DNA of 64,000 nt from Tubulanus polymorphus. Its lineage: Eukaryota > Animalia > Nemertea. The position numbers and the translations under genes were made by a program. Below the pieces are notes generated by a model. It was given only the letters and a program-made list of their open reading frames with translations. It had not been told where the DNA came from and did not search any database. The stretch spans positions 17,305,653 to 17,369,652 of the forward strand of contig NC_134028.1 of assembly GCF_964204645.1 (NCBI RefSeq), in the 5' to 3' direction. Shown one piece after another: positions 19,523 through 61,182 of the stretch. Positions within the stretch are counted from its first letter, which is position 1; the number at the start of each line of letters is the position of its first letter.

Positions 19523-19538
19523 TTATATAATTAAAAAA

Positions 19539-20974: not shown

Positions 20975-20990
20975 TTATATATCAAAAGAA

Positions 20991-21696: not shown

Positions 21697-21713
21697 TTAT
21701 TTTACATATTTTC

Positions 21714-22096: not shown

Positions 22097-25000
22097 TTAA
22101 CACGTTAGAATTCTTTTCATTATCTCGTTCTCTTTTGTTTCTTCTCTTTTAAATTTTAAGTATTCATCTAAATTACAACCATAAGCAACTGTATGAATTC
22201 CATCATCTAAAATATATCTTTTATCATCGAATGGGTTCAAACTAACTTTTTCTATTTCTTCAATAAACACTTCGTGATCTTCTGATCTTAAACATTTCAT
22301 CTTATGTTTTCTAACATAATTGCTTCTTCATTGAATATACAATTGATGTAATCTTTGAAATGAATGTTTTTTTCTACTACACTTTTAATTATTCCTTTTA
22401 ACTTTTTGGCTTCATGTTCTTTAGTTCTATAACTATACATCTTAGATCGAATACCTATAAATTCTATCATTTCTTCAACTCCTAATTCATCTTTGAATTT
22501 ACCAGGACTTTTTTTTATTATCATTGTTAAACAATTCATGATCTTTTGGATAATTACTAAAGTCGGAGTGATGTTTTAATGTTTGTAAATCATCTGTTAT
22601 GTTATTAGTTTTTATCTTTAATATGAAACTATCTGTATCAAAGTATAGAATTTCTGTATGCTTTTTCCCAAAATGAGGTTGTAATACGTTATAGTAAAAT
22701 TCATACATTAATAATTTTGATATTTCGTAAACTGAAGCTCCAACATAAATTGGTTTATTAAACTTCATAGAAGTTCTTTTCATTTTAACTGCAGCTAAAT
22801 TTCCATCAAATATTCTGTTACCAATAAGTCTAGGATATGTTTGTAAATGTCTAATTCTTTTAAACCATTACTAACTAACTCAATATCATTTCTATTTCTT
22901 ATGAATTCACAAGTCTTACCATAGAATGCATTATTCATTAACTTGAAAAAATCTTTCTCGAAATCAGTTTTAGCTTTAGTTCTCTGTTTGGTGTTAAAAT
23001 TTATATATTTTTCTAACCATTTAGATTATTATTTTCATACTGTAAAACTTCAGTTATTTCAAATACTCCATAACGTTGTGGTTCCATCATTGCCCAACCA
23101 TATAGATTATTTGCGTCTATATATAATAACTTATAGCCAGGATTATCATTCACATTGAAATATTTATCACTTAATACACCTGAAACTCTCCCTCTTATAG
23201 ATTTTTCAAATAACAATAATTGATCTATATTTGTTAACAAATCCATTTTTATATCTGTAAATGTTAAACCACAATTTCAAGTTAAACCTGGACTCGAATA
23301 ACAATGACATCGATCAATATTAAAATATTTTAGATTTACATCTCTAAATCTTTCAAATATATCAGTTAATAATAATACATCTGATTTTAAATATAAATCT
23401 ACTAATTGTCCATGATTTTTTTATTTTGAAATGATTCCAAATATTCAATGTTCTATTATATACTTCATCTTTAACATATTCATTTTTTAATTCATCATAA
23501 AATTGTTCTTTTAATAATTCAGTTATATTAAAATCATTATGATTTTTATAAAATGTATATGGAATTGCTCCTTTATATCTCATTAATTGAAAATCATTAT
23601 TATTTGGATAGTGTTCCTTTAATATCTTTAATTCATCATCAACTAATGATTTTGATAAATTATCTAATGAACTACTTAAAAATCTATATGAATCAATAAA
23701 TCTTAGGAATCCAAATTGGAAAGATATATAATTTTCAGATGTTTTAGCTAACATTTTAAATTTATAAATTGGTATTTTATCTTTTGATCTATTTGAATTT
23801 AATCTTGCTATTTCATTATTGATTTCTTCTATTTTATGACATAGCTGTCTGATAAATAAATGAGCATCATACCCTGAAAAATTATAAAATATTACTGGAG
23901 CAAAATTTATTTTCTTAGCTTGTAAGTTACAATTCTCATGCGCCGCGCCTCGAAACTTTCCATTCAAATGATCATGGTCTCTAACGTTTTAATCTTTAAA
24001 ATTAAATAGTTTTTCACAATAAAAACATTTATCTGAAAACTCAAATTCTTCTTTATCTTCTTCTGTCATTATAATTTCTTTATTTTCATTTAACTTTTCA
24101 TTAAACTTTATTTCATATTCAATTAATAAGTCACAAAAATGATTGATGACATTTTCATTTCTATAATGATAATATTCACTTTCAATTAGTTCTGGGTAGT
24201 CTGATTTTATATATAATCCAAAAGACGCAGCTGATTGATGAATCTTTTTAATAGTATTTGTTTTTGGTGGTTCTTCTGAGAAATCATTTTCAGAATTTAA
24301 TTTCTTTCTTTTATAATATATTTCTTTTCTATCTTGATCAGTTAATTCTTTATTTAATGATTCAAAATACTTTATTCTTGTAATTATATTTCTTGAATTC
24401 TAATATTTTATCTTTTTCATTTGGTAAAATCATTTTACAATAATCATGATTTTCACATAATTGTTTATGATTTAATAATGCACTTTCATTACTAAATTTA
24501 GTTATACATTTTCTACATAGATATATTTTATGGTGATCATTTTCTGTTCTAAAAAATACATCTATTTGTTTTATCCACATATAATGATTTTCATAATATA
24601 ATATATCTATAACCCCATTTGAATCATAATCTTTTGATAGATATAAAGGTTCTAATGTATAATGTTCAATTTTATTGCCCTTTGTATTTGATAATTTAAT
24701 TAAATCGAATACATTTATTTTTAGATTATTATCACTTTCTATTTTTGGAATATTTCTAATTCTAACAGGATAATTGTCTCTCTTATAATTATTTTCAAAT
24801 TGTTTATTATTTGTTAATCTAAAACTATGTGTAATATCTTCTGTTGGGTGTAAGCAACTAATTATTGTCCATAAAAAACATTTATTATCTTCATTTTGTA
24901 CATTTATGATAGCATTAGTTTTCAATGGTAATTTGATATAACTTGATCCATTAATATTATCATCTTTATAATATGATAAATTATTTTCATCAATTTGTTT

Positions 25001-31277: not shown

Positions 31278-33466
31278 TGTAGTATTAGACGAGAGAGACG
31301 ACCAGAGAACAAGAGCCCAGTACGACGATCAGTTTGATCTTGCAAAATGCGTCACGATTTATTAATACACAGATATTTATATGCAGCGAATATGACGGTC
31401 ACAGACCATCAATAACAAATAGTATTGAATTCGGAAATATACAGTTCACTGGACAGCTGAGTGACATTCGTAATAACAACAGAGTTGAGTCACTCCATAG
31501 GACCGAGTCCCGACATTCTCCCGGAGCAAAGTTTCTGCAAGGCTGCAACGGCAGCAGCTCGTTTTGGGCGAATGAGTTTACTCACTTTTTCTGATTGTGC
31601 CTCCTGTTATTCTTGAATTCTTGATGATTTATCTCAAGCGGGTACAACTTATTAATGGGTCTGCTCGTTCGACCCTTAGCGGTTCGCACGACCGCCGATC
31701 GCACACAATTATCATTTCCACGATTCAACTTTTCAATGATACCCAAACGCCATGTAAGACGAGGCTTTTCCGCGTGGATTTGAACGATATCACCTAATTT
31801 CACTGTTTCCTGATTATTTCCGGACTGACCCTGAGTGCGGCGAGGTACTCATTTTTTCCATCTACCCCAGTAATGCCTCACGTGTACGGCGCGATGCTCC
31901 TGCCGACGATTCAGTCATCGCCAGCATCAGTAATAGGTTACAGAAGTGTCGATATTCTGCGCTCGTACATTAAGTGAGGAGGAGTTAGTGGTTCTGGTTC
32001 TAAAACGCGACTATCAACATATGTTAAAGGGTATCATTAATTTTATATTCACATTCAATGACAACAGTGTTCAATTCATCATAGTTAAGTTTTGCACGAC
32101 CGAGGACTCTTTTCAGACAGTTTTTTTTTGCTATTCCAACTAACCACTTCCCAGAATCTTCCGAACCACGGAGCTCTTCTTTTTGGAATGAAACGCCATT
32201 CGACCCCATTCTGGGCCATGAATGGGAAGATTTTCAGTGATTGAATAGTTTCGAGAGTTTCTCGGATGCGCATGTAAAAGTTGAAAAAAAGTTGAAGCAT
32301 TATTAGGTCAGATACAACTTCTAAATGTAATGCTCTAGAAATACCGCGTGTAATAAGACAAATATAAACCTTTGCATCAAATGATTCGGTTCTTACGATC
32401 AAAGCGCCTGTATAATCAATACCAACTACTGAAAAGGGTGGCGCTTTCTGAATGCGTAGGGCGGGTAATGGAGCCGAATCGGGTAACACGAATGGTTTAC
32501 CAGTGCCAGCCTTAATACAAGGCACACACTTTTGTATCAAAGAGGTGTACGACGACAAATTTGTGGTACCCAATTTTCTGTCTAACAAATGCTATTGTTC
32601 CATTATCACCTTCGTGCATTACCTGAATACGATGGACGTAACGGAGATACAAAAACGTGAATCGATGGGTTATCGGCAACAGGATTGGGTACTTCGTTTT
32701 CACCGGAAGCCTAGCAATCTGTATTCTCCCCCGCAGCGACGGACGCCATCCGTCAAAAAAAGTTTTAACTGTCTTACCAAAACTGGTCGTGGCTTCGAAT
32801 TGGAACGTAACATCAGCAAACCCTTCACTCTGAATACCGAACACCCATTGATTCTCCAAATCCGCGTTCTCCGACAGTGATTGGATCTAAAAGAGGGACA
32901 AAACATTTACGCAGTGGCATATTTACAAATCTGTATACACGAACCGTCACTCTCAACAGGCGATTCAACGAATGAAAGCTATCAATATCCATAGCCTTGT
33001 GTATACCGTAACAAGTATTTGATCTAACTGACATAGCTGTAACAGTTACGAAAAAATTATTTGCACAATCAACAAACAGTATCAAAATGAAAATTTGGCA
33101 GCTGAGACTCTGATAGCCATGTAGGCTCTTTCCAATTCACACGAAGCAAGAGTATCCGCAGAAATCCCACGTGAAGGAAGATCTGCAGGATAACGTTCAC
33201 TGTTACAGTAATGCCAGTATGACATGCATTTAGTGGTCAACTTTCGAATTTCTAAAATCCGATTCATAACAAACGTACTCTAATTGTAACTAATTGTTTA
33301 TCGGAAATAATCCAAGACAGAACAATTTGGCTATCGGACCAAATATGTGTAGCAATATGTAGTCGAGAATCCATCGATTTTTTAATGTAAGTAGCCAAAC
33401 GTGATACGAGAAATTCAGCCATGAGTTCCATTTCTGGAATTGTTCTTACTTTGATAGGAGATACCC
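31278..33466 (-). mobile_element. BEL/Pao LTR retrotransposon 3' part (RNase H, integrase, C-terminal domain, PPT, putative LTR ~31278-31515)
   Basis: PEMELMA, WSDSQIVLSWI, PADLPSRG, PPFSVVGIDYTG, SRALHLEVV, APWFGRFWE, GDIVQI..WRLGII..VRSAVVRT..RPINKLYPLE; gggagaa|TGT...ACA. Confidence 0.85.
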
Positions 33467-33467
33467 A

Positions 33468-33584
<117 letters not shown>

Positions 33585-33769
33585 ATATACCCTATTAATA
33601 ATATTCCTGATAATATTCAACTCTAACTGAAATTGTAAATTCTGAATTATCCAAATTATATATTTGGTTTCGTGCAAATAGGCTATCACCGAATTTAACT
33701 AAAACACACTATATGGTATTTAGCCGTGCTAAACTCAAAGATTCTATCAATATATTTATCAATGATGCT

Positions 33770-34137: not shown

Positions 34138-34326
<189 letters not shown>

Positions 34327-34417
34327 AGTAATTGGGAAAGTAGGCTTTCATACCAGAGGTCGAGCGGTCGAGACACCACTCACCACCACAAGTAATTTTT
34401 TTTTCCTAATAAATGGG
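34327..34417 (+). repeat. Left TIR (includes the TAAATG start of the first gene)
   Basis: agtaattgggaaagtaggctttcataccagaggtcgagcggtcgagacaccact...cctaataaatggg; reverse complement of 51515-51604 with one substitution and one T-run indel. Confidence 0.95.
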
Positions 34418-34738
34418 AGATAGAAAAGCATTCTTAGCAACAATAAATAACAGAATTAAACCAGCAAAAAAAAATTTGAAATAAAAAAGTTAGTTGATGT
34501 TACAAAAGAAATTGAACATAAAATATTGAAATTAGAAAAGATAAAAACTAAATATGGAGAGAAAGTATCAGCGAATTTAAGCTACTGTAATGTTAGTACA
34601 TCGCGAGAATTTAAAGTATTTTTACCTGATAAATGGGTTTCATTGAGTACAGAGGAATTAAAAGATTTAGAAGGATTTAAAATAATCTACCATGGGAAAA
34701 ATGAAGACGGTCATCATGATTTAGAAATTGTTGATTAA
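34413..34738 (+). pseudogene. Small KYG/LP-family PLV gene (one frameshift in an A run)
   Basis: MGDRKAFLATIN.../KIKTKYGEKV...KVFLPDKW...IIYHGKNEDGHH. Confidence 0.7.
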
Positions 34739-36659: not shown

Positions 36660-36690
36660 TTATATAACAAAAAAATTAATTGTGTTGTTG

Positions 36691-36951: not shown

Positions 36952-36952
36952 T

Positions 36953-37541
36953 TTAAATAAATTCATATTTAAATGGGTGTTGTAATCTAAATAGTAATTT
37001 TGATCTTTTAATATTTTTCAACTTATCCATATATTCATTGTGTAAATCATGTGGAATAATATCATTTTCCTCAAATGCATTTTTCATCGATTTTCTATCT
37101 TTATTGTAGAATAAAACTAGAAATCTAAGGTTTTCTCTAAAGTCTTTAACAATTGAATTATAATTTTTATTTAAAACCCAAGTTGTTATCCCAAAATGTC
37201 TGCCAGAAAAAGCTAAATAACATAACTCACTCTCTCTAATTTTTGAATCATGTAAATTTGCACAATCATCTATAATGAATAATGTATTTGATCCTTTATA
37301 AATTATTATCTAAATTTTCTTTTACTGTTTTAGGATCTAATATAATAAATTTATTATTTCTAGTAATATTTCTATCATAAGTTTGATTAAATTCATATGT
37401 TGGACAAAATAATACTATATTATCAAAATAGTTTTTATAAACAGTTTCTAATAAGTTTAATATAGAATAAGTTTTTCCACAATTTGTTACACCAGAAATT
37501 AACATATTATGAGGTTCAAATATAAATAATTCCTTATTCAT
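36953..37541 (-). pseudogene. A32/FtsK-type genome packaging ATPase (one in-frame stop)
   Basis: Walker A ISGVTNCGKT, Walker B LFIIDDC, SGRH motif. Confidence 0.9.
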
Positions 37542-38671
37542 TTATACATTTTTTAATTTTACTTGACAATATCCATTCATTGAATTTATCTGGCCATCCA
37601 ACCCATTTTACTAAAGAATATTTTTTTCTTTTAATAGTTTTTGTTTTAAATACTTTTTCAATTTTATATTCTTGTTCTAGATTTTCAGTAGTTAAACTCA
37701 ATTCTTCTTCGTAAAAGTAGCCATCAACTTCTTCACCATCTAAATCTTCTAATTTATAGACATATGGTTTTGTTGTTATTACCTTTTTTATTTTATATAT
37801 TTCCCTAGTAAAATTTCGATCGTATCCTTTGTCAAATATCTTTTTATACTTAGAAATTCTAACATTTTGACCAACTTTAAATTTAGGTTCACCAGAATCA
37901 TCTACAAGAAATGCTCCATATAAATTATTCCAAACAATTTCAGCATTTTCAGGTTTTCTAGCATCAATAGGTTTCATTCCAATAGAAGAATGATAAGAAT
38001 TATTATATCCTTCTATCAATTTTGGTAAAACATCAATCCATTTAAAAGTATTATTTGCTGTAAAATATTTCCACATTCTTGTTCTTAATGTTCTATTAAA
38101 TCGTTCAACAACTGCCGCTTTTTTATCCGATTTTGTTGAAAAATATTTAATATTATGATTATCTAAGAGTTCATGAACAAGTGAATTATCAAACTCCTTT
38201 CCATCATCAAATTGTTTTTTTTTCTGGTTTTAGTTTATCATCCGAAAGAAATTTTCTTAAAACATTTGATGTTTGTTCAGCATCTTTTCTATAAAGTGGG
38301 AAACTCCATACATAACGACTAAAAATATCAATTATATTCAATATCCACCAATAATCATCATTATGTTTCTTAACATTTTTCATATCAATTAAATCTCCTT
38401 GCCACTGTTGATCTACATAACTTACCATAGTTTTACTAGTTTTATATTTTCTAACAATTTTTTTATGTGTTGTATATGTTGGTTGTTCTAACATAAATTC
38501 ATTTATATCTTTATATTTAACTAAATTTTGTGGGATTATCTTATCTAATTTATCTTGTTTTACTTGACGCCATATATTTTTGGTAGAAGAATAAGTAACC
38601 CAACTCTCAGGGTTGTAATATAAATTTCTTAAATATTGTTCTTTAGTATTAGGAGTTTTTTTACCGCCCAC
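37534..38671 (-). pseudogene. int: Retroviral-type (rve) integrase with C-terminal chromodomain
   Basis: QWQGDLIDM, IDIFSRY, QFDDGKEF, VVERFNRTLR, YN..YHSSIGMKP, YKIEKV...LVKWVGWPDKFNEWI. Confidence 0.93.
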
Positions 38672-38701
38672 TTATATATCGTTAATTTTAACTTTATATT
38701 T

Positions 38702-39965
38702 CTAATATTGAATACTATCTAATTGTGAATTCACAATATTTAATTGTGCGTCAGATATAATATAAATGTGCATTTTGAAATTGTTGCCTCTTTTCTTCGC
38801 CATGAATAATTGTATTCCATCTTTAGTATTTTGCAGTTTTTTCCCAGAACCATGTAATGAATTTTCCTCTGTTGTTCTAAAATCTAACCATAATGCATAT
38901 TTATTACCGGTATAATAATCAATTTGATTAATATTACAATTTTCAAATGATTTTACTTTTTCATTCATAAAATGTTTTCTAATTTCTGGCCACTGATCTA
39001 TCATTCTCATTCCTTGACAAAATATTATATTTGCTATTCCTTCGATAGTTATTTCTACTTTTGTTATTTCAGGATTATAATAATTATCAACATTTATTGC
39101 GCCATTAGTATATGTTGCAATGGTAAAAATTTAATATACCTTTAAATATATTAATATACCTTTAATAGATCTTCTTGGGAAGTTAATATTCTCATTAATA
39201 ATTTCATCATTTGCATTAAATAGTTACAGTTTTAAATTTATCAATATAATCATATAATAATGAAAATCCTTGATTGTATTTAGTTTGAATTATACTTGAA
39301 ATATTTTCATCAGTTACTGTATCATATTCTAAACATATATTCGATAATTTATAACTCATATCTTTATTAACGCTAGGTATTACAATTTCATTAACAGGAG
39401 CAAATGTTATTTCGAATATAACGTCTTCTTGAATTGCGTATTTATATAAAGGCGCATTATTATTTATCAATTCAAAGTCTAATGGAATTTTATATTTGCT
39501 TCCATAAATCGTTTTTATCAAATTATCTACAGCATTAGTTACTACTGCATTATTGGCTTCAGATCTTAATTTATTATGGTTTTCCGATTGAATACCCTGA
39601 AATATCATATTATTTCTATTTTCTTTAGTTAACCATAAATCTTTATAATGCATAAATAGATTATAATCATCTAATGAGAAAACTGTTTCTCAACCAATCT
39701 TTATAGTTAATTTTTTAATCAAATATCTCCCAACATTATCGACAACATAATTATTATCATGACCGGTTACTTTTATATCGGCTGATAAATAAATACTATT
39801 TGGAACATAAAAAGTATTTTGTGTTAATCTAGGAATTCTAACATATAAAGTTTCATCGGGATTAATATTTGAAGGATTATGAGTAATTATATGATGTGAT
39901 CTTTCTGCTTTAATAGCATTAGATATTCTAGAAATCTTAGAAGGACTTATATAACTCCCACTCAT
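38702..39965 (-). pseudogene. Major capsid protein (double jelly-roll), frameshifted
   Basis: ~420 codons; NPSNINPDETLYVRIP, IPLDF, LSNICLEYD, PRRSIKGI, ALWLDFRT...LHGSG; size and position typical of Polinton MCP. Confidence 0.75.
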
Positions 39966-39989
39966 TTATTTAACAAAAAAATTAATGAT

Positions 39990-41435
39990 TTATTTTTTAT
40001 TATTTTTTCTTGATATCTTTTTGATATCATATTCAAAAATAATAGCACTTACAACTGTAATTAAAAATAAAATAATATGTTCAGCAGCAAAGTTAAGAAT
40101 ATTCCCAGCAGATTTCAATATAAAACCAACAATTGATGCAATAATTCCTGGTAAAGCTGCAGCAGATTTTTTAGATAGTTCCCATAAATATTTTGCTAAT
40201 TTCTTTAAACCATCTTTAACTTTATCTTGTATAGAATTATTATCATTCGGGGGTTTATCCGGTTTATTTGGAGTAGGAGTAGATTTTAAAGCATTTGATA
40301 TTGCTAAACCAATTGTTGTAAATAACATAGTTACAGCTGTTAGAATTGAAAGAATTGTTATTCCTTCTAATTTAAATAATGACTTTATTCTATCTTTCAA
40401 TGATATTTCAGAATTTGGTTTAATCAAAAAATCTTTAAAAATAACTTTTAATCTATTTATATTATAATCATATGATTTTAACAATAATTTAATTTCTTCT
40501 TTTTGTAATTCTATGTTATATTCTAAATCATCTTTTTCTTTTTCTAAACGTAATTCTTTTTGTCTATATTCTATTTCATCAATTACTTGATGATCTAAAT
40601 CAGACTTTAATTGTTCTATTTCTTTATTTTTATCAGTTAATTCTTTTTCTAAAGTTCTAATTTTAAAATCTCTTATACTTTTATCATGCGCAATTTTATC
40701 AGATGCAAGCCTTATACTTTTAATTTCTCTAATTGCTTCAACAGAAAATATATTATTTAAATCTTCTTGATCTGTTGCATCAATTAATCCATTCGGTAAA
40801 AGTTTTTCAATTGGAACTTTATTTGATTTAAGTTTACTAGTTTTGGAAGTTATATTCTGTTCAGAAGTTGTTTCTGTTTCTGATTTCTTTTTGATTATTT
40901 CAAATAATTCATTAATTCTTTGTTTAAATACGTCTATATTATCATCTCTTTCTTTTTGTGTAACATCAGTTATTTCATTACTATTACTTATTCTCTTAAT
41001 TCTAAATGTTTCTAAATTTTTCAAAGTTGATTCCGCTAATATTGTTTTTAGTTTTGTCCTTTGATTAGTGATATCAATATAATAATCAATTTTCAAACGA
41101 TAATAACATTTACCATTATCTAAAAATTTTAATTTATGTGCTAATGGTCCAACGTCTTTATCATTTATGTTAAATTCAGAATTTTCAATTATATGTTTTA
41201 ATTTAGGTATTTTGTTTAAATTATCTAAATCTTGTTTTACTAAATCTGGGTCTAAATTTTCAGGATTTAATTGTGATTCTGCATTTTTGATATAATCAGG
41301 CATATTTAAATTATTATTATATCCTGGCTCATTACCATCATTAGAACTTGTTTCACTAAAATCAGGTTGTTGTTCTTCAGTTATGCCGGGTTCATCATAC
41401 GTATCCATTCCAATATCTTCTCCTTCTACATCCAT
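39990..41435 (-). CDS. 481-aa coiled-coil protein with C-terminal hydrophobic/amphipathic helices
   Basis: Intact ORF; EGITILSILTAVTML and KSAAALPGIIASIVGFIL segments. Confidence 0.8.
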   Translation of the reverse strand: MDVEGEDIGMDTYDEPGITEEQQPDFSETSSNDGNEPGYNNNLNMPDYIKNAESQLNPENLDPDLVKQDLDNLNKIPKLKHIIENSEFNINDKDVGPLAHKLKFLDNGKCYYRLKIDYYIDITNQRTKLKTILAESTLKNLETFRIKRISNSNEITDVTQKERDDNIDVFKQRINELFEIIKKKSETETTSEQNITSKTSKLKSNKVPIEKLLPNGLIDATDQEDLNNIFSVEAIREIKSIRLASDKIAHDKSIRDFKIRTLEKELTDKNKEIEQLKSDLDHQVIDEIEYRQKELRLEKEKDDLEYNIELQKEEIKLLLKSYDYNINRLKVIFKDFLIKPNSEISLKDRIKSLFKLEGITILSILTAVTMLFTTIGLAISNALKSTPTPNKPDKPPNDNNSIQDKVKDGLKKLAKYLWELSKKSAAALPGIIASIVGFILKSAGNILNFAAEHIILFLITVVSAIIFEYDIKKISRKNNKK

Positions 41436-41451
41436 TTATATAATAAAAAAA

Positions 41452-42835
41452 TTAAAATTTAAAATATAATATTCCTCCTATAACAATTCCTATACAAGTT
41501 TATTTAGTATTTTCATGGGATTTATTATCATCATTTAGTTTAATTATATCATGTTGAATATTATCAGTTTTAATATTTTCTGCAGTATTGTAATCTTTTA
41601 TTTTAGAATCATTATTTAATTTAATATTCTTAGTTTTAGTTCCTGTTGATTGAATGTGTTTTTTATTTTTTTCACCTTCCATTAATTTTGGAGCAGTAAT
41701 AATCTTTTTATTTATATCATTCAATCCAAATGAATTATTTTTTGTTGCAGTTTTAATTAGATTATTATAACCAATTATATTTCCCATCTTTAATACTAAA
41801 TCATTAGAAATAATAAAAAGATTAGGGCCTATACAATGATTTAATCTAATATGTGATTTATCTAAATAATTTTAATATCTTACAATGTTTTCTGGAATCG
41901 ATCTATTTTTATCATTATGAATAGAATCTTCAAATAATACTTTGAATTGTTTCTGTGTATCAAATGATGTATTTAAATTTCCAATTATTGGGGATCTTGT
42001 TTCAACTTGCGCACCTAAAATACATATCAAATAAGTTCTAATAGATTGATTTATTCTTTGTATACCTGATTTTGTAAAACCTTCATTATTTTCTAAAATG
42101 AAATAAACCCAACCATTATTGTTTTCTTGTTTTAAATTATCATAAAATTTCGGTAATTTATTGAAATTAATTGTTTCTAAATCCTTGGTTTCTATTTTAC
42201 CATAACCTAATTTATTACTATAGATATTATAAAAACTATTAGATGGTATGGGAAGTGCACAATATTCTGCAATCTTTTTAGGGCAAGGAAGTGATCTTAT
42301 TGTTCCAATTTTTGTTCTAAAATCAGAATTATTTATATCTATATTAAATTCATTACAAATTTTGTAAAACTTTGATAAATTAATATTATTATCTAATTCT
42401 TTAAAATGCCTAGATCCTGGTAAAGCGCACTCTAATTCATTTAATATTATTCTGATTTGAAAGTATGGATGAAATCTAAATAAACTTTGAATTAATTTAT
42501 ATTTAGAATTATTCAAATGATCATTCCAACTAATTCCACAACCTGTTGTTGCACAAATAAACAGCAAAATTTAATTGGTTCTGCCAATACTTCATATTAG
42601 ATTTTAATAACCATTGTTTTTCATCTTTCAATTTTTTAAAATTAATTAAATATGCATGAAATATATTTTCCATCTTTGCATTAAAATTATTAGTTTCAGT
42701 AACATAAATTTCTAAATTAGTTAATGAATCTAAAACTTCATTTCTATATTGAATATCTTTATTAAAATCTATTGCTGGAATATTATAATTAATTGATTTA
42801 TTATATTGGAAAGCTTTTGGAAAACTATCTACCAT
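41452..42835 (-). pseudogene. Conserved PLV protein with C-terminal TM
   Basis: Three ORF pieces; paralog of 18293-19522. Confidence 0.8.
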
Positions 42836-42851
42836 TTATTTAATTAAAAAA

Positions 42852-43286
42852 TTAATAATTTATTAATTCTTTTAATAATTTATCTTGTTCTTCAACTGTT
42901 ATATGACCATTCAAACTTATTATATAATCTAGTGTATTCTTCAATTTATTAATTTCTTTTATATTAGTTTTAATTTTTTCTTTATTACTTTTTATATTTA
43001 ATTTTGAACTTATATCAGTTAAAACACTTGAACTTAATCCTAATACACCAATTGATATAGCTAAAGGTGTTAATGGACTGAATATTGCTAGAAATGTTAT
43101 TACAGAACTAATTGTAACCGAACCACTAATAATAAGATAATATATAATTTTACTTTTTAAATATTTTTTCTTTTTTATCTTTAAGTCACTTTCAAATTCT
43201 AATATTTGTTTTTCTACATATATTTTTAATTTATTTTTATTTATATCATGAGGAATAATATCAATACTATCAACTTTATCTTCCAT
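42852..43286 (-). CDS. Two-TM small protein
   Basis: Intact 144 aa; two hydrophobic segments; TAAATG start. Confidence 0.75.
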   Translation of the reverse strand: MEDKVDSIDIIPHDINKNKLKIYVEKQILEFESDLKIKKKKYLKSKIIYYLIISGSVTISSVITFLAIFSPLTPLAISIGVLGLSSSVLTDISSKLNIKSNKEKIKTNIKEINKLKNTLDYIISLNGHITVEEQDKLLKELINY

Positions 43287-43305
43287 TTATTTAGAAAAAA
43301 AATTA

Positions 43306-43728
43306 CTAATTAGTAAATGTATATGCTACAAATATAACAATAACTGTTCCACCTAAAATCCAAATTATTTCATATTTCTGTTGTTCTTTACTTGGGGTAT
43401 AATAATCTGATAATTGTGGTTTGTATAGATGTAATTTTTCTTTAATGGTTACTGCGTTATATAAACTCATTGCATCATCAACTGATTGAAAATCTCTATG
43501 TGAAATCTTCTGATCATATAATTCCTTGTTAATATAATCCATATAGTTTTGTCGTTTTTCTATGTATTCTTCTGCTGCCTTATCATATTTCTCTAATGCT
43601 AAATTATGTCTTCTTTGTTCTCCTAATGAACTATTTTTATCAATATGCTTAAATAAATAACCGCCACCAGTAAATGCTAAAGCGTTAACAATTGCCGATC
43701 CTATAATAGTTATAATTGCAGAAGCCAT
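43306..43728 (-). CDS. Small protein, hydrophobic N- and C-termini
   Basis: MASAIITIIGSAIVNALAFTGG...; conserved in copy 2. Confidence 0.8.
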   Translation of the reverse strand: MASAIITIIGSAIVNALAFTGGGYLFKHIDKNSSLGEQRRHNLALEKYDKAAEEYIEKRQNYMDYINKELYDQKISHRDFQSVDDAMSLYNAVTIKEKLHLYKPQLSDYYTPSKEQQKYEIIWILGGTVIVIFVAYTFTN

Positions 43729-43752
43729 TTATTTAGTAAAATAATTACGCAT

Positions 43753-43974
43753 TTATATGGGAGGAATATATTTTTGTTTTTCCAAATAATCAATAGTGAA
43801 ATTAGATAAAGTAACTGCTAATGTTAATTTTAAAATATCATTTATATCAAATCTATCAACATTAACACTTCCCATTTTAAATACTTTTTTTAATACCATT
43901 GAATAACCAACAGTTCCAACTGATAGTAATGCTCCATTATATAATCCAGTTATTATCCACTTATTATCACTCAT
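43753..43974 (-). CDS. 73-aa hydrophobic protein
   Basis: Intact in both copies and nearly identical to 20413-20634. Confidence 0.8.
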   Translation of the reverse strand: MSDNKWIITGLYNGALLSVGTVGYSMVLKKVFKMGSVNVDRFDINDILKLTLAVTLSNFTIDYLEKQKYIPPI

Positions 43975-44334
43975 TTTTTAATCAAAAAAATTACTATCTT
44001 CAAAATATTTAGTTATCTTATTTATAATTATTTCAACATTTATTTCATTACTACTTTTATGATTATCATATATTTTGGTTAATATGTTTTTGATATCATC
44101 TATGATAAAACCTTCATCTAATTCATAAAATCTTAAAGATTATCTAATTAAATTAGTAATCTTTTCTACATTTAAAGTTTCTTTATCTATTGTTGTTTCA
44201 TACTCAAATGTTGTTTCATTAGAAAATGCAATATTTTTGATATGTGTAATTACATCATTAATGTTAAATTTCATTTCTTTCTCACGTTTAAAATCAAACC
44301 CAAAACATATACTCGGTCCAACAGTTATATTCAT
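43967..44334 (-). pseudogene. Hypothetical PLV protein
   Basis: MNITVGPSICFGFDFK; intact paralog at 20627-20974. Confidence 0.7.
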
Positions 44335-44350
44335 TTATATAGTGAAAAAA

Positions 44351-45106
44351 TTACTCTTTACATCTTATAACTAATTCATATATCACAGGAAAGTTATTCA
44401 AATCAATTAAATAACCATTATGATTTCTTATTTCTAATTCAAAATTATTGAAATGTGGAATACTAGGTTCAAAATCACATTCAGCTAAATTATAATTTAT
44501 TTGCGTTCCAAATTGTTTAACATTTTTTAATGGTAAAATATTTAATATACTAGAATTACAAATTGTATCTTTAGTTGCTTCAAATGTTTTTGTTGGGTCA
44601 ATTAAATTGCAATAAATATAAAAGTGTGTAAAAGGTATTAAGTTTGATCTACCTTCTGCGTATGCTGTAACAATTTGGGTTAATTCCTAACAGTTTACCT
44701 AGAGGTTTTCTTACTGTAAATTTAAATTGTTCGTCATTAGCTAACCTAATCTTTATTTTATTAGAACTATCACTTTTTAAAATTCTAATACTAAATCCGG
44801 AATCACTTCCTAATTTAGCTCGAGCTTTTCTATTAATTTCTTGTGCTAATGTATCTAAATTATATAATCCTGGTTTTAAATATATAAAAAACCATTTATT
44901 CCTTTTTTGTAAAAGATTGAAAAAATTAAATGTTCTAGACTTTTATCCGATATATTGTAAAATGAGTTACATAAACTTATATTTACTAATTTTAAATCAA
45001 CACAATTCTTAAATTCTCTATCTAATTGTATTAGTAAATTATGTGATTTATAATTTGTAAGTTTTCTAGAATCAACAAATATTCTGTATTCTTTTAATTC
45101 TACCAT
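44351..45106 (-). pseudogene. Minor capsid (penton, single jelly-roll) protein
   Basis: IFVDSR...LDREF...SLCNSFYNI...KPGLYNL...FYIYCNLI pattern typical of Polinton/virophage mCP. Confidence 0.7.
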
Positions 45107-45174
45107 TATTTATAACATAAAAAAATTACCGCTCATCACTAAAAATTAATTTTAATAAAATTTTTCCTTAATAA

Positions 45175-46523
45175 ATGGATGAGAAGATAGCATGTGAAAT
45201 TTGTGGTGAACTTCTAAGAAAAAGTAATATGGCTCGACATATGAAAATGTGAAAATATGAAAAAAACATGATGAAAATTATAAACCCCCTAAACTAAACT
45301 GTCCAAAATGTAATAAATTATTCTCAAGAAATTATGTTAAAAAACATTCAGAGAAGTGTAAAATTAATGGCGCAACGGCTAATGTTGATAGTAATGAAAG
45401 TAATAGTAATTCTGTTGAAGTTGAACCTGAAATTATTTGAAAAAGACCTTTCTTATTCTATGACAAGGATAATATAAAAGATCATTTCTGCGAGCCTTGT
45501 CGAATAAAATATAACGCTGAAAATATAGTATAGAAGATTGGGAGAATCATCAATTTCGTAAAGTACATATAGATAAAATTTCTAATAAATTTGAAACTGA
45601 ATTCAATGAAAGAAAAAATAGTTTATTAGAAAAAATAAAATATGAGAAAACGTTACCAGATAATAAAGAAACAGTTGAAAAGTTAGAAAAACAATATAAT
45701 ATATTAACAAGAAAAACATATTATTGTAAATATTGTAAATTGATTATTACAACAAGTAATTCAAATCGACATAATAGAACAACAAAACATAAAGAAAACG
45801 TAAGAAAATACCAGGAGCTTAATGAAGATCTATTACCAATAAATTATAAACGAAAATGTCCACAATGTAGTTATGCGACCTTAAGACAAGAAGGTACTGT
45901 TATTTTGTGTTGATTGTGGATGGCAAAAGAATTTATGGGGTGAAGAAAAAACTAGAAATTTTCTCATAGATCCAAAATTAAATTATCTAGATGAAATTTT
46001 TAAAATATTTTCTATAGAAGATCATACACCAGAATATATGCAATGGCTTGAAAAATGAAAATAATAGAAAATAAAAATGGTGAAATAACTAAAAAAGATA
46101 TTATAAAAACAATTATTCCGTCAACATTTAACACAAAACAAAAGAAAATGTATTTATATTTATTATTTAACGATTATTATGAAAAACCTAAATTAACAGA
46201 AGAAGATATGGAAAATATAAAAAAAAATATTTAAACAAATATTAATGTATCATTTGGAAAATAGAATAACAGATTCAATAAATTATGAATTCTTTTTAAA
46301 TAAGATTGTAAATTATTTAAACATAGATATTATAATTCCATTTGATGAATTAACAAACAAAAAGAAACAAAGAGAGCGAGATGAAATGTGGAATAATATA
46401 ACACGTTATTTAAATGAGAAAAATGAAATGGAAGAACCTAAACAAATTATACAAGAACAATTAAATGAAAATGAAGAAGCCAATAGTGATTTCGAGTATG
46501 ATGATATTGATTTTCTGTTTTAA
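45175..46523 (+). pseudogene. Multi-zinc-finger protein, decayed
   Basis: CEICGELLRKSNMARH, CPKCNKLF, YCKYCK...RHNRTTKH, CPQC. Confidence 0.65.
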
Positions 46524-49500
46524 TGGCCATAAGGTAATGTTTTTATACCATCATCTAAAATATGCCTTTTATCATCAAATTGATTCAAACTAGTTTTTTC
46601 AACTTCATTAATGTACATCTCGTGATCTTCTGATCTTAAACAATTCATTTTGTGTTTCATTACAATTGAGTTATATAAACACTTTATATAATCTTGGAAT
46701 TCTATATGTTTATCAACCACATGTTTTGTTATTCCTTTTAACTTTTTAGCTTCATAATCTTATGTTCTGTAACTATACATTCTACTTCTTATCCCAACAA
46801 ATTCAATCATTTCATCACCCCCTAATTCATCTTTAAACTTACCAGGAATCTTTTTATTATCATTGCTAAATAGTTCATGATCTTTGGGATAATTGCTAAA
46901 ATCAAAATGATGTTTTAATGTTTTTAAGTCTTTTGTTATGTCATTTGTCTTGATTTTTAGTATGTAGGCGTCCGTATTTTTGGCTATTAATGGAAATCCA
47001 CAGTTAAATGTACCATCTTCAGTTGATAAATCATAAACATAATCTGTTGGGTTATATATTTCAAATAAATCTTTAACTTCTTCAGTTAAATCTTTTTCTG
47101 TGTGGCTTAAATTAAAGCAATTTGGTTTAGATTTAATCAATCCAATATTCATATTGAAGCCTAATGAATTACATAATATATTTAACCCTGAAGTAGCAAC
47201 TTTTCCTTTCTGTGCAAAGGTTATCTTTTTATCCTTTGTAAATTTTTTAGCACCATCTGCTGCGTAGAATCCAATGAAGAACCATAATCTGGAACTATCT
47301 TTTCTTTAGTTGAAGTATTATTTTTAACTATTGCATGAATATAGAATTCATCATTATATTTTATAGCAAAATCTTTAGGATTGTTTACAAGTATTCTATA
47401 AACTGCTGTTGATTTCATATGATCCATGATTCTAAATGTTTTATGTGAATAAACTTCTTCACAGAATTTCTTAATTCTTTCTAATAATTTTAAGTCTTGA
47501 TTGCATAAATACTTACAATATTTATTACCCCAAACATAATTATACACACCTGCTGAACCATCTCCCATGAAAAATCCTTTGATAAAATATTCTTTTTCTT
47601 CTAATGTTTCGGGTTCTATGTTATAAGTATTATCAGTAATTTCATCAAATGACATATGATTCATTCTTTGGAAAAATCATTTATGTAATAATTCATCTAG
47701 AATTTTTATATCAGTTGGTTTTATTTCATCACCATTTCGTTTAATTAAACTATGATCTTCTGTAACATCTACAAACCCTAATTTAGTTCTAAATCTATAG
47801 ATTTTCTTATTTGTTTTATGCTTAATAATATTCTTTAATTTTTTCCACCCATTTCTTGTCCAAACATCCATTAATTCATTTATTTGTATTAATTCTTTTT
47901 CACCGTATGAAATATAACATTCATTTTGTTTTGGAATTATTTCTGATATTCTTCTTATCAATATTTTATCATTACATTTTAATAATATTGGGGTGTCAGC
48001 TGTTACAGAATCAAAATATAATATTTCAATATGCTTTTCCCCAAAAAGTGGTTGTAAAACATTATAATAAAAATCATACATTAATAATTTTGATACTTCT
48101 AAAACAGTTGAACCAATGAATATAGGTTTATTAAATTTCATTGACGTTCTTTTTAATTTAACTGCTGTTAAATAATCTTCAAATCTTTTATTTCCTAAAT
48201 GTCTAGGACTTGATTGTAAATGTCTTAATCTTTCAGAATTATTTACTAATTCAATATCATTTCCATTTCTAATATTTTCGCATGTTTTACCATAAAAACT
48301 ATTATTCATTAATTTGAAGAAATCTTTTTCAAAATCTGTTTTTGATATGGTTCTCAGTTGAGTATTGAAATCTATATATTTTTCTAACCACTTTGATTGA
48401 TTAAATTCAATATATCTATGTACTTTCTTTAATTTCATTCCTTGTTTTAGATAAAATTTTAACATTCTATAATGAACGATATAATTGTATTTATTATTTT
48501 GAGTAAGTATTAATTTTTCTGTAAAAACATGATCTTTCGGTTTTATTTTCTTCTGGTATTCACTTAAATAACTATCATCTACAGTTAAATGTTTTTGGCA
48601 ATAAGGTAAGTTTCTTGTTTTAAACTTTATATTTTCAGGATATTCTAAATCAACTACAAAGAAATAACCAATTGGTGCTTCATCTTCTAAACTCATAATT
48701 GCGCTTTCCCAATTAGTTTAATCATCATTTTCAACTTCTGTTAAGATAAAATTTTTATACGGTTGAGGTTGCATCATTGCCCAGCCATATAAATTATTGG
48801 CGTCAATATATAATAATTTATATTCATCATTTGCTTTAAAATATCTATCTCCCATAACACCACTAATTCCACCTCTAATTGATTTTTCAAATAATAAAAC
48901 CATATCTGGTTCCTTTAATAAATCTAATTCTACATTTGTATATTTTAAACCACATTGCCGGGGTAAACCAGAACTAGAGTAGCAATAACAAGGATCAACA
49001 TTAAAATGATTCAAATTAACTTCTCTAAATTTTTCAAATATGTCAGCCAATATCATAACATCTGATTTTAAATATAAATCAACTAATTCGCCATGATTTT
49101 TCATCTTAAAATGGTTCCAAATACCTAATGTTCTATTAAATACTTCGTCTTTCACATACTCCTCTTTTAATTGATCATAAAATTCTGTTACATTAAAATC
49201 ATTGTGTTTTTTATAAAATGAATAAGGAATTGCGCCTTTATATCTCAATAATTTAAAATCTTGTTCATTTGGATAATAATATCGAGTTATAACAAAATCA
49301 TTATCAACTAAACTTTTTGATAAATTATCTAATGAACTTGCTAGAAATCTATAAGAATCTAAAAATCTAATGCAACCAAATTGAAATGAAATATAATTTT
49401 CAGATGTTTTAGCTAATAGTTTAAAATCATATTTTCTTACATTTACACCATTCATAGCATTATATTCTTCTATTTCTTGCATAATTGTGCCCAATTTCCT

Positions 49501-51519
49501 TGATAATTGTTTTATAAATAGATGGGTATCATAGCCTGATAAATCATGAAATAATCTTGGAACGAAATTTACTTTTTTAGCTTGTAAATTACAATCTTCA
49601 TGAGCAGCTCCACGATATGTTGAATTTAAATGATCATGATCTCTAACTTTTTTATCAAATGAATAAAAACGTTTTTCACAATAACAACAATGAGTTGCAT
49701 AATTAAAATCAATTTCATCTTCTTTTTTCATAACTATTCTTTTATTTTTGTTTAATAATTTTGCAAAATCACTTTCTAATTCAATCATTTTATCACAAAA
49801 ATCATTAACTACATTTTCACCTCTAAAAGAAATATATTGACTTTCATATAACATAAGCAGCAGCTCTTTGATGAACTTTTTAAATTGTATTTATAATTGG
49901 TGGGTCTTGTGTTGTGTCTTCATTTAATTCATTTCCTTTATCCATTGATTTTAATAATTGCTTTTTGTTATATATTTCTTTTCTATCTTGATCAGTTAAT
50001 TCTTTATTCAACGATTCAAAATCCCCATAAATTACAAATGGAACAATGTTCTTATATGATTTTATGATTAGTAAATTTCAATTTATAATCTTTTTCTGTT
50101 GGCATTATCAATTTGCAAAAATCTTTATTATCACATAATTCTTTATGTTTTAATAATGTATTCTCAGTCATAAATTTAGATAAACATTTTCTACATAGAA
50201 AAATTTTATTATGGTGATCACTTTCTGTTCTAAAGAATAAATCAATTTGTTTTAACCACATATAATGTTCATTTTCATCTTTTTTGTAATATAACAAATC
50301 TATAGCATTTTAATCATCATAATATTCTGTTAAATATAAAGCTTCCAATGTATAATCTTTAATATTTTCACCCTTTGTCTTTGGTAATTGCATTAATTCA
50401 AATACATTTATTTTTAAATTATTAACTTTTTCTATTTTAGGAATCATTTTTATAGTTACTGGATATTGATCAATTTTATATAATGTTTCATATTTCCGGT
50501 AATTTGTTATTCTAAAACTATGCGTCATATCTTCTGTTGGGTGTAAACAACTAATAATTGACCATAGGAAACATTTATTATCTTCATTTTGAACATTTAT
50601 TACTGCTTTTGTTGTAAATGGTAATTTAATATAAGATGATGCTTTAATATCCTTTTCTGTTGTAAAGTTTGAATCATTTTTAAACATTTTATTACTTTTT
50701 GATGTTTTATTCCTTTTTGTATTGTAAACATTTAAATCTAAATATATAATTTCATTCAATGTTAAGCCAGAACCCTCAAAATATCTTTCTTCAATATGAC
50801 GTTTAAATTCATTAAATATTTTTTCTAACTTCTCTTTTATTTGTGATTTTGAAATTATTTCGTCAGAGTGTGTTTGAATATTATAATTCATTTTTTCTTC
50901 TGACTTTATAAATCTTACTTTCCCAGAGATACTAATTTTTGGATATTCAACATCTGTTATCAAATCTAGTATTTTTTCTATTATTTCATTAAATTTACTA
51001 TAATCTTCTATTGTTGTTCCTTTAAAAAATCTAAATATAATAGCTGCAGGACAAATTTTACTATGTAATGTTTCTAAAATTTCAATTGTATCTTTTATTT
51101 CTAGTGAATCAATATAATTTCTAACATTTTCCATGTAAGGTTTATTTGAAATTGATTTAGTTTTTGAAGTTGGTTTTTTTACTTGTTGAGGTTTATCATC
51201 AAAATAACCTTTTCCTAAAACATTATTACTCAAATTTTGGCGGTGTTTTTGTGATTCGAGATGTCTATTATAATTCCTTTTTACTATAAATTCATTACAA
51301 ACTTCACATTTTATTTCATCCACATTCATATTTTCTAATCTTTCTTTTCTTTCATTGGAATTTTCTGGAGTTTCAAAATCTATTACATTTTTTATATGAT
51401 TTGCAGTTTTTTCATGTCGTGATTTTTGGGATTTATCAATGTATTTTTTTACAATATTGACAATAATATTGATTTTTATTAACATTAGTGTTTTCTGGCT
51501 GGTGTTCATTCTCCCCCAT
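46520..51519 (-). pseudogene. polB: Protein-primed family B DNA polymerase containing an intein
   Basis: ZnF N-terminus, NEDNKCFLWS/HYMW, RDHDHLN..YRGAAH, FHDLSGYDTH, YIDANNLYGWAM, KLMNNSFYGK, YFD|intein|TDAY, GKFKDE, DDKR. Confidence 0.95.
46976..48009 (-). mobile_element. Intein with LAGLIDADG homing endonuclease in pPolB motif C
   Basis: Block A SVTADTPILL, block B VDVTEDHSL, EN motifs FIKGFFMGDGS and FFIGFYAADG, block F YVYDLSTEDGTF, block G LIAKN|T. Confidence 0.93.
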
Positions 51520-51608
51520 TTATTAGGAAAAAAAATTACTTGTGGTGATGAGTGGTGTCTCGACCGCTCGACCTCTGGTATGAAAGCCTACTTTCCCAAT
51601 TACTTACT
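51515..51608 (-). repeat. Right TIR (includes the pPolB start codon)
   Basis: Reverse complement of 34327-34417 plus an extra terminal TACT. Confidence 0.95.
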
Positions 51609-51617
51609 GTGTGTGTG

Positions 51618-51661
<44 letters not shown>

Positions 51662-51670
51662 TGTGTGTGT
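51609..51670. repeat. (GT)n(GCGT)n microsatellite flanking the right TIR
   Basis: Direct reading. Confidence 0.95.
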
Positions 51671-58330: not shown

Positions 58331-58631
58331 ACAAAGCGGATTGTTAATGCGGAACGATTGCGCTTCAACACTAAACTATATGCTGTGCCACGTATACCAC
58401 ACACACATTTCAGACCTGTCAATGCGATATATTCCCACACTTATCACAACTTCCTACAGAATGTCAACTTTTAAAAATGTCGATCACATCCACTTCGATC
58501 ACAGTTTCACAATCAAATTACACAGTTTTCGTACCTTTTCTTAGCATTAAAATGATGTTATAATCCGCTTTAATGGAGAGCCTACATTCGCGTGACTTTA
58601 TGCGGCGGCCATTGTGATATGCAATAGGTAT

Positions 58632-59063
58632 TTAGTATTTATAATCAACAATTTCTAAATCATGATGACCATCCTCATTTTTTCCATGATAGATTATTTT
58701 AAATCCTTCTAAATCTTTTAATTCCTCTGTACTCAATGCAACCCATTTATCAGGTAAAAATACTTTAAATTCTTGCGATGTACTAACATTACAGTACCTT
58801 TTCGTTGATACTTTCTCTCCATATTTAGTTTTTATCTTTTCTAATTTCAATATTTTATGTTCAATTTCTTTTTTATTTCAAATTGTTTTTTACATTCATA
58901 TTTTCTAATCGTTCTTTTCTTTCATTGGAATTTTTTGAAGTTTCAAAATCTATAACATTTTTTATATGATTTGAAGATTTTTCATGACGCGATTTTTGAG
59001 ATTTATCAATGTATTTTTTAAAATATGGACAATAATATTGATTTTCATTAACATCAATTTGTT
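58632..59063 (-). mobile_element. Chimeric PLV fragment: pPolB N-terminus joined to the small KYG-family gene
   Basis: 58890-59063 matches 51326-51500; 58632-58870 matches 34505-34738. Confidence 0.85.
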
Positions 59064-61182
59064 CTGGCGACAAAACCAAAATAATGAATTGTCGCAGGCG
59101 ATAAAACCAAAATAATGAATTGTCGCGGGCGACAAAACCAAAATGGTGAATTGTCGCGGGCGACAAAACCAAAATAATGAATTGTCGCGGGCGATAAAAC
59201 CGTAATAATGAATTGTCGCGGGCGATAAAACCAAAATAATGAATTGTCGCGGGCGATTAATCCAAAATAATGAATTGTCGCGCGCAACTAAACCAAATAA
59301 AATTTGTCGTGGGCGACAAAAACAAATTACAAAACATAAATAATGAATTGCTGTGGGCGATAAAACCAAAATAATGAATTGTCGCGGGCGATAAAACCGT
59401 AATAATGAATTGTCGTGGGCGATAAAACCAAAATAATGAATTGTCGCGGGCGATTAAACCAAAATAATGAATTGTCGCGGGCAACAAAACCCAAAAAAAT
59501 TGTCGTGGGCGACAAAAACAAAATATAAAACCAAAATAATGAATTGTCGCGGGTGACAAAACCAAAATAATGAATTGTCGTGGGCGATAAAACCGTAATA
59601 ATGAATTGTCCCGGGCGATAAAACCAAAATAATGAATTGTCGCGGGCGATTAAACCAAAATAATGAATTGTCGCGCGCAACTTAACCAAAAAAAAATTGT
59701 CGTGGGCGACAAAAACAAAATATAAAACATAAATAATGAATTGTCGTGGGCGATAAAACCAAAATATTGAATTGTCGCTGGCGACAAAACCAAAAAATTG
59801 AATTGTCGCGGGCGACAAAACCAAAATAATGAATTGTCGCGGGCGATAAAACCGTAATAATGAATTGTCGTGGGCGATAAAACCAAAATAATGAATTGTC
59901 GCGGGCGATTAAACCAAAATAATGAATTGTCGCGGCAACAAAACCCAAAAAAATTGTCGTGGGCGACAAAAACAAAATATAAAACCAAAATAATGAATTG
60001 TCGCGGGTGACAAAACCAAAATAATGAATTGTCCCGGGCGATAAAACCAAAATAATGAATTGTCGCGGGCGATTAAACCAAAATAATGAATTGTCGCGCG
60101 CAACTTAACCAAAAAAAAATTGTCGTGGGCGACAAAAACAAAATATAAAACATAAATAATGAATTGTCGTGGGCGATAAAACCAAAATATTGAATTGTCC
60201 GCTGGCGACAAAACCAAAAAATTGAATTGTCGCGGGCGACAAAACCAAAATAATGAATTGTCGCGGGTGATAAAACCGTAATAATGAATTGTCGTGGGCG
60301 ATAAAACCAAAATAATGAATTGTCGCGGGCGATTAAACCAAAATAATGAATTGTCGCGGGCAACAAAACCCAAAAAAATTGTCGTGGGCGACAAAAACAA
60401 AATATAAAACCAAAATAATGAATAGTCGCGGAAAAACCAAAAAGAAGAATTGTCGCGGGCGATAAAACCAAAATAATGAATTGTCGCTGGAGATGAAACC
60501 AAAATATTGAATTGTCGCGGGCGACAAAACCAACAAAAAAAATTGTCGCGGGCGATAACACCAAAATAATGAACTATCGCGGGCGATAAAACCAAAGTAT
60601 TGAATTGTCGCGGTCGATAAAACCAAAATAATGAATTTTCTCGTGCGACAAAACCAAAATCATGAATTGTCGCGGGCGATAAAACCAAAATAATGAATTA
60701 TCGCGGGCGACAAAACCAAAATATCGAATTGTCGCAGGTGACAAAACCAAAAGAAAAATTGTTGCGGGCGACAAAAACAAAATATAAAACCAAAATAATG
60801 AATTGTCGCGGGCGACAAAACCAAAAGAAGAATTGTCGGGGCGACAAAACCAAAATATTGATTTGTCGCGGGCGACAAAACCAACTTAATGAATTGTCGC
60901 GGGCGACAAAACCAAAATATTGTTTTGTCGCGGGTGATAAAACCAAATTAATGATTTGTCGCGGGCGATAAAACCAAAATAATGAATTGTCGCGGGCGAT
61001 AAAACCAAAATATTGAATTGTCGCGGGCGACAAAACCAAAATATTGTTTTGTCGCGGGTGACAAAACCAAATTAATGAATTGTCGCGGGCGATAAAACCA
61101 AAATAATGAATTGTCGCGGGCGATAAAACCAAAATAATAAATTGTCGCGGGCGACAAAACCAAAATTATTGATTTGTCGCGT
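59064..61182. repeat. Tandem satellite, ~31-bp monomer AAAACCAAAATAATGAATTGTCGCGGGCGA(T/C), roughly 65 units
   Basis: Direct reading; variant monomers recur about every 390-455 bp. Confidence 0.95.

Follow-up and report, generated by a model that had tools for sequence, protein, structure and literature searches.

A LAGLIDADG intein of the pol-c type interrupts motif C (YFD/TD; slashes mark insertion sites here and below) of a protein-primed polymerase B (pPolB) encoded by a Polinton element, a new host protein class for such inteins. The element, copy 3, lies in the window, the 64,000-nucleotide stretch of DNA analysed here. The intein is now broken, and it quite probably represents a family that resides at motif C of Polintons and persists by homing among intein-bearing and empty elements, likely in an animal host.

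Anatomy of the intein and its Polinton

The insert measures 1,034 nt (2 modulo 3) and carries one stop and one frameshifting deletion at 46976-48009, as the initial annotation had described. Its reading as a pol-c-type LAGLIDADG intein in a protein-primed PolB is borne out by Ser1, TEDH, VYD, the terminal Asn, Thr+1 and a match to the TIGR01445 profile. The features of the insert are as follows.

46976..48009, minus strand: coding sequence of the intein (1,034 nt), disrupted by one stop and by a single frameshifting deletion
47746..48009, minus strand: N-terminal Hint region with Ser1 (block A) and TEDH (block B, 47752-47763); TIGR01445 match
47677..47679, minus strand: premature TGA, private to copy 3 by read comparison
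47557..47586, minus strand: LAGLIDADG motif 1, FIKGFFMGDG, acidic residue retained
47283..47290, minus strand: frame break near 47285, a deletion relative to relatives and absent from many other copies
47252..47281, minus strand: LAGLIDADG motif 2, FFIGFYAADG, acidic residue retained
46976..47041, minus strand: C-terminal Hint region with block F VYD, the FN-C-GFPL signature and a Lys-Asn end
46973..46975, minus strand: Thr+1 of the C-extein

The N-terminal junction reads EKHIEILYFD/SVTADTPILL at 48010/48009 and the C-terminal junction reads NCGFPLIAKN/TDAYILKIKT at 46976/46975, the insert ending in FNCGFPLIAKN with Thr next. Profile searches for Hint and LAGLIDADG domains succeeded in part: the intein_Nterm profile TIGR01445 matched residues 2-88 of the N-terminal piece at 31.2 bits (cut-off 24.5), but PF14890 and PF14528 (LAGLIDADG) remained below cut-off on the window pieces, and Pfam profiles alone missed the intein on the unsplit window ORFs. 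In intact relatives PF14528 scored above cut-off in six of six, and PF14890 did so for P0004 and P0125. Class 1 inteins are characterized by Ser or Cys at position 1, TxxH in block B, Asp in block F, a terminal Asn and Ser, Thr or Cys at +1, and a penultimate His is usual in inteins as an assisting residue (PMC7765530). The window copy has the full class 1 set except for this His, in place of which it carries Lys, as do P0005 and P0385; P0003 has Ser, while P0004, P0125, P0138 and P0139 have His. Among related inteins, Lys-Asn ends occur more often than any other (53 of 119).

The frame change is a deletion, because the alignment with the intact intein-bearing pPolB P0003 shows it as such, and the window copy is not expressible because of the stop and the frameshift. 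Its frame is not continuous with that of the host protein, whereas it is continuous in P0003, P0005, P0125, P0138 and P0139. The G+C content of the insert (25.5%) is close to that of the host-gene flanks (24.2% and 26.7%). In the first codons after the intein (46961-46975), third positions are richer in G+C than is usual in this A+T-rich gene; these codons are possibly a co-copied flank.

The initial annotation had called the element a Polinton-like virus, a label that did not hold: with an integrase and terminal inverted repeats it is a Polinton proper. It spans 34327 to 51604 (17.3 kb) between the inverted repeats, and its pPolB, rve integrase, packaging ATPase and terminal inverted repeats identify it as a Polinton/Maverick of the Beta adintovirus type, Beta being the term of Starrett et al. 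for the divergent pPolB type (PMC8502044). The features of the element, its host flank and the empty site of a second copy are listed here.

33264..33698, minus strand: BEL/Pao retrotransposon peptidase fragment in the host flank (PF05380, 23.5 bits, cut-off 22.3)
34327..34420, plus strand: left terminal inverted repeat, 94 bp, 97% identical to the right one
36953..37541, minus strand: A32-type packaging ATPase, frameshifted (PF04665, 23.7 bits, cut-off 22.8)
37534..38671, minus strand: frameshifted integrase, retrovirus-like and with a chromodomain (rve and Chromo scores under cut-off)
38702..39965, minus strand: probable major capsid protein, broken, assigned from a sequence motif
46520..51509, minus strand: copy-3 protein-primed PolB pseudogene, divergent (Beta-like), 54-78% to P0249
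51512..51604, minus strand: right terminal inverted repeat
22607..22666, minus strand: motif-C site without insert in the pPolB pseudogene of copy 2, junction 22637/22636

The integrase, ATPase and pPolB of copy 3 are all broken. Of 16 Polinton-like contigs, 11 carry integrase-like ORFs with 28-45% identity to the copy-3 integrase, and the polymerase has an intact, intein-free relative in P0249. Outside the intein the polymerase bears stops at 48718-48720 and 46760-46762 and frame changes near 50060-49900, and it also holds an EndoVII/HNH-like insert at about 49579-49740. PF03175 is absent or weak for this type of polymerase. Profile searches gave no capsid match at 38702..39965, no match for double jelly-roll capsid or penton genes in the copy-3 element, and no maturation protease gene there. 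A poxvirus VLTF3-like late transcription factor piece (46221-46523, plus strand; PF04947, 26.1 bits, cut-off 25) lies tail to tail with the pPolB of the same Polinton.

No target-site duplication is readable, both ends of the element lying in microsatellites. These TA/TG microsatellites abut the element at 34141-34326 and 51605-51667, and may reflect either targeted insertion or later expansion. Elsewhere in the window, at 58616-59068 and 59066-61181, a 31-nt satellite array is immediately adjoined by two short Polinton fragments, which are 89-90% identical to 34471-34763 and 51322-51499. The flanks of copy 3 also contain LINE pieces in addition to the BEL/Pao fragment. BEL/Pao elements are described as a metazoan subclass of retroelements (PMC3118150), and therefore an animal host is likely; this assignment rests on one Pfam match, to the Pao peptidase, just over its cut-off.

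Only two motif-C sites occur in the window, those of copies 2 and 3. Copy 2 reads KKHTEILYFD/TDSFILKIKT with no insert, and the initial annotation had presented it as the empty allele. The site is indeed empty, but at 71-78% over the pPolB (22179-25765 compared with 46527-51453) copy 2 belongs to a different subfamily, and a role as the pre-insertion allele is ruled out by a likeness of 70-82% in the 50 nt beside the site. Another block of the two copies (18243-21702 and 41405-45111) is 85-90% alike; the contrast between this value and the 71-78% of the pPolB suggests module exchange between Polinton subfamilies.

Relatives, residence and origin of the intein

We found the same intein in other pPolBs, three among the best 120 of 174 matches in one search and five among the best 120 of 1,252 in another (P0003, P0004, P0005, P0125, P0138 and P0139), and in further pPolB pieces, namely fragments P0251, P0254, P0314, P0372 and P0385 and the locus L012. 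Intact members are present in at least five other polymerase lineages. The two intein pieces of the window copy are 60% and 67% identical to P0003; in the comparison of inteins the identity is 63.8% to P0003 and at most 44.4% to any intein outside pPolBs. Ser1, TEDH, VYD, Asn and Thr+1 are present in all 13 full pPolB inteins, and both LAGLIDADG acidic residues are kept in six of six aligned lineages.

An AlphaFold model of the intact relative P0004 (pLDDT 81.5, pTM 0.53) matches TliVMA, PI-PkoII, PI-PfuI, PI-SceI and I-DmoI, the last with an rmsd of about 2.7. The archaeal and yeast proteins PI-PkoII, PI-PfuI, TliVMA and PI-SceI share the same Hint and two-motif LAGLIDADG fold but reside in cellular hosts and are only 11-19% identical to the P0004 model. 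Their activity has been demonstrated. In BFVD, giant-virus polymerases (phycodnavirus, pandoravirus, megavirus) rank first for the P0004 model. The tenth entry in this fold search, A0A8D9PE63, is a deposited adintovirus PolB of 1,413 amino acids.

The initial annotation had linked the intein to giant viruses, and the link stands to the extent that most relatives reside in giant-virus-type, RNA-primed PolBs: among 261 inteins extracted from 382 proteins, 240 belong to PolBs of the RNA-primed type, 13 to pPolBs and 7 to topoisomerase II, the remaining one being unclassified. Among intein-only IMG/VR loci, 20 of 64 are labelled giant-virus metagenome-assembled genomes (MAGs). The C-terminal junction pattern recovered four viral loci, all Pol-delta-like PolBs and three labelled giant-virus MAGs, as well as 11 metagenome loci. 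One of the latter, L012, is a pPolB with 54% identity to P0125 across the intein; of the other ten, seven were translated and are Pol-delta-like, and three repeat viral loci. The same pattern gave no loci in prokaryote genomes, annotated phages gave one weak match per query, and P0003 as a single query gave no match against viral contigs.

Several members of the wider family occur in other settings. P0058, a Pol delta catalytic subunit by name from the green alga Chloropicon primus (1.86-Mb contig), carries a pol-c intein that is sister to that of P0052. The inteins of P0051, P0071, P0073 and P0133 lie at D/TDG sites of type II topoisomerases and form their own clade. In the polymerases P0010, P0185 and P0293 the FPL intein end of giant viruses takes the variant form GTPL. 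P0010 also has a strong phage-polymerase match (PHROG 262, 536 bits), a hint that phages and giant viruses have exchanged inteins.

In a tree of 173 inteins of 300-420 amino acids, from which six near-copies had been dropped, eight pPolB inteins form one clade (support 0.945). The clade recurs on subsets of 56, 43 and 42 rows with supports of 97/92, 98/93 (mixture model) and 98/99, and in the subset trees the window intein pairs with P0003 and then with P0005. The phylogeny thus gave a firm Polinton clade (97-98), but its sister varies between trees, so that no donor can be named. Two trees place three phage-like PolB inteins on long branches next to it (91/97 and 93/93, unstarred), and the third, of 42 rows, resolves no sister; the AU test does not reject a sister position for a giant-virus clade with the same FN-x-GFPL end (p-AU 0.43). 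A common FPL end was not taken to prove a giant-virus sister, since the trees keep the two clades apart or leave them unresolved. By sequence, the closest kin outside Polintons appear to be pol-c inteins of giant viruses and some phage-like polymerases, and the inteins nearest to the window copy occupy the same motif-C (pol-c, position III) site; descent, long ago, from the pool of pol-c inteins found in giant viruses and phages would account for the family.

We compared the inteins with their exteins, using a FastTree extein tree of 104 rows without short rows and near-copies. Five gains or losses are needed for the 7 intein-bearing rows among the 104, and all 7 fall inside one 20-row subclade. 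Pairs of Beta-type members are 44-66% identical in the intein and 41-68% in the extein. For P0005, which belongs to a different pPolB class, identity to the other members is 44-49% over the intein but 22-26% over the polymerase domain, and the AU test does not reject a placement of P0005 apart from the inteins of the Beta type (p 0.167). The matched divergence in Beta-type members and the mismatch of P0005 therefore indicate long residence plus at least one jump between classes. As judged from these alignments and trees, the family is a Polinton-specific clade that appears to have diverged in step with its host polymerases and once to have crossed to a distant polymerase class.

Intein-bearing and empty alleles

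The P0125 cluster has 136 members, possibly from more than one assembly or host, and we compared the 15 listed ones as proteins. These sit on contigs of 57 kb to 1 Mb and comprise seven full-length intein-bearing members, six intein-free members and two without coverage of the site. The exteins of the family are about 99% identical, except for one intein-free allele at 95%. Of ten residues diagnostic of intein-bearing versus intein-free alleles, nine map to the interval from -6 to +44 around the insertion site. Up to 10 residues away from this site, diversity is 0% among intein-bearing and 16.5% among intein-free alleles, as compared with 0.7% and 2.3% far upstream. The intein-free alleles have three site types, and these look derived because the outgroups P0004 and P0248 have the site type of the intein-bearing alleles. 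Such a tract is, as indirect evidence from sequence comparison, the pattern expected from copying of the intein with its flanks and escape from cutting; the same clustering could also be obtained from one recombination tract without an active nuclease, the sites not being independent. Two intein-free members, P0235 and P0237, have Cys for Thr in the catalytic D-T-D motif.

Both allele types are also present among reads of the host species. Four of ten listed sequencing runs contain part of the stretch. We used run X5, which consists of raw reads from a second study with the same species label, and mapped it to 46300-48700 at 80% likeness or more. This gave 7,360 reads, just 207 of which are 99% alike. 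Read depth over the intein is 133-258 in 12 bins (mean 216) and over the exteins 358-732 in 14 bins (mean 521), a ratio of 0.42, and 81 reads join across the empty site. At the TGA site (47677-47679) 241 of 250 reads carry another letter, and at the frame break (47283-47290) 73 reads have extra letters. From the depth ratio, the empty-site reads and the lesion-free reads it therefore follows that the family is diverse, that it includes both allele types, and that the lesions are private to copy 3. By formula, a mean intein depth of 216 in 1,934 Mb read corresponds to about 22, 56, 112 or 335 copies for a genome of 0.2, 0.5, 1 or 3 Gb, respectively, single-copy depth not entering the calculation. 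In the reads of the host species, many intein-bearing copies without the two lesions are present alongside empty alleles.

Proposed homing, alternative explanations and significance

In the mechanism that we propose, the precursor of the intact copies is predicted to splice by the canonical Ser1/Asn/Thr+1 route, which would restore the YxDTD active site. The released endonuclease would then cut the empty motif-C site of a sister Polinton, integrated or replicating, and repair from the intein-bearing copy would introduce the intein together with a little of the adjoining sequence. Empty alleles whose sites have changed would evade cutting and survive, and the window copy would be a dead record of this homing family.

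An unlikely but better-surviving alternative is that a single Polinton lineage acquired the intein in the distant past and that it has been a passenger from then on, descending vertically, being spliced out and repeatedly lost through recombination with intein-free relatives, with no current homing. It is consistent with the matching divergence of intein and extein in Beta-type members, where both trees agree, with the confinement of all intein-bearing rows to one extein subclade, and with the absence of the intein from the 16 longest ORFs found in 16 Polinton-like IMG/VR loci. However, both endonuclease motifs are kept across lineages merely 44-66% identical, the contrast between uniform intein-bearing and divergent intein-free alleles falls exactly at the site, and P0005 requires transfer between polymerase classes.

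The intein might instead be retained because it favors its own Polinton: the nuclease would eliminate intein-free competitors that share the cell, be they Polintons or giant viruses, and copying of the intein would be of secondary importance. Such a benefit has already been proposed for giant-virus inteins and introns (10.1101/299784), and the divergent empty sites fit cutting pressure. We regard this as improbable, since the flank tract of the intein-bearing alleles points to copying and ordinary homing covers the same facts.

The initial annotation had favored a direct jump from the PolB of a co-infecting large virus. A recent single jump of this kind from a giant-virus PolB into the copy-3 element, followed by integration and decay, would agree with the predominance of giant-virus-type PolBs among the relatives, with the giant-virus clade that the AU test retains as a possible sister, and with the leading viral polymerases in the fold search. 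It is very hard to reconcile with the rest of the evidence and was abandoned: the nearest inteins are all in other pPolBs, the clade is deep, old and resident in Polintons with in-step divergence, the G+C content is that of the host gene, and many copies occur in the host species.

That the insert is an assembly chimera or contaminant is scarcely credible. Contigs of study P1, one without any difference, bridge the N-terminal junction, although P1, which gave the best read matches, is possibly the assembly's own source, and no contig bridging the C-terminal junction occurs among 24 of about 1,880 records listed. The raw reads of the second study cover all of the insert, both junctions keep the frame at a canonical site common to intact homologues, and the element has paired terminal repeats and is set among host retroelements.

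Homing of a Polinton intein would have close parallels in known systems. The Mimivirus PolB intein (pol-c, position III) occupies the same motif-C site, YGD/TDS, and its 351 amino acids with Ser1, Asn, Thr+1 and LAGLIDADG resemble the intein described here (about 350 amino acids) (PMC549080). Its host protein is an RNA-primed, Pol-delta-like PolB, whereas here the host is the protein-primed PolB of an integrated multi-copy Polinton and the intein belongs to its own clade. Nuclear scaffolds of Klebsormidium, Tetrabaena and Hondaea carry viral-like polymerases with inteins, and Anaeramoeba has inteins as well; these cases resemble the present one in the virus-derived inteins of nuclear DNA and in homing between paralogous copies of one genome, as proposed here. 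The cases in the available text of that report are from algae and protists, in giant-virus insertions or host genes, and include no Polinton and no animal (PMC10710043). Beta adintoviruses and Polintons share with copy 3 the divergent pPolB, rve integrase, packaging ATPase, terminal repeats and animal association, but the available text describing them has no occurrence of the word intein (PMC8502044). The HNH and VSR inserts of Polinton pPolBs are nuclease domains too, the EndoVII/HNH-like insert of the copy-3 pPolB being comparable, and Krupovic et al. suggested that nuclease inserts in pPolB stem from intein invasions; as far as the available text goes, these inserts lie outside motif C with no Hint domain reported, whereas here a full Hint and LAGLIDADG intein occurs with intein-bearing and empty alleles (10.1101/2023.08.22.554363, PMC11071308).

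According to a survey of inteins in eukaryotes, they occur in fungi, algae, some protists and giant viruses; its available text names no animals (PMC5784728). As the initial annotation had supposed for Polinton pPolB, inteins of Polintons or of other protein-primed polymerases are not reported in the full-text literature that we searched; an annotation of this kind may exist in repeat databases, subscription papers or supplements. The clade extends inteins to Polintons and protein-primed polymerases and, likely, to animal nuclear DNA, and the pPolB inteins are direct evidence for the invasions that Krupovic et al. merely proposed. It also records gene flow between the giant-virus and phage pool and Polintons. 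Families with intein-bearing and empty alleles and conversion tracts are an independent sign of expressed, recombining endogenous Polintons, because homing needs both alleles in one nucleus. The natural intein-bearing, empty and divergent empty alleles make homing and resistance testable, and inteins with cysteine-free (Ser1/Thr+1) junctions are added tool candidates. Finally, the evidence leaves about evenly balanced the prospect that animal genomes harbor an active, self-splicing homing intein of the Polinton-specific pol-c clade. By driving through multi-copy families of endogenous Polintons, selecting cut-resistant alleles of the polymerase active site and moving across polymerase classes, it would amount to a natural gene drive, with resistance, in a transposon-virus family of metazoan nuclei.
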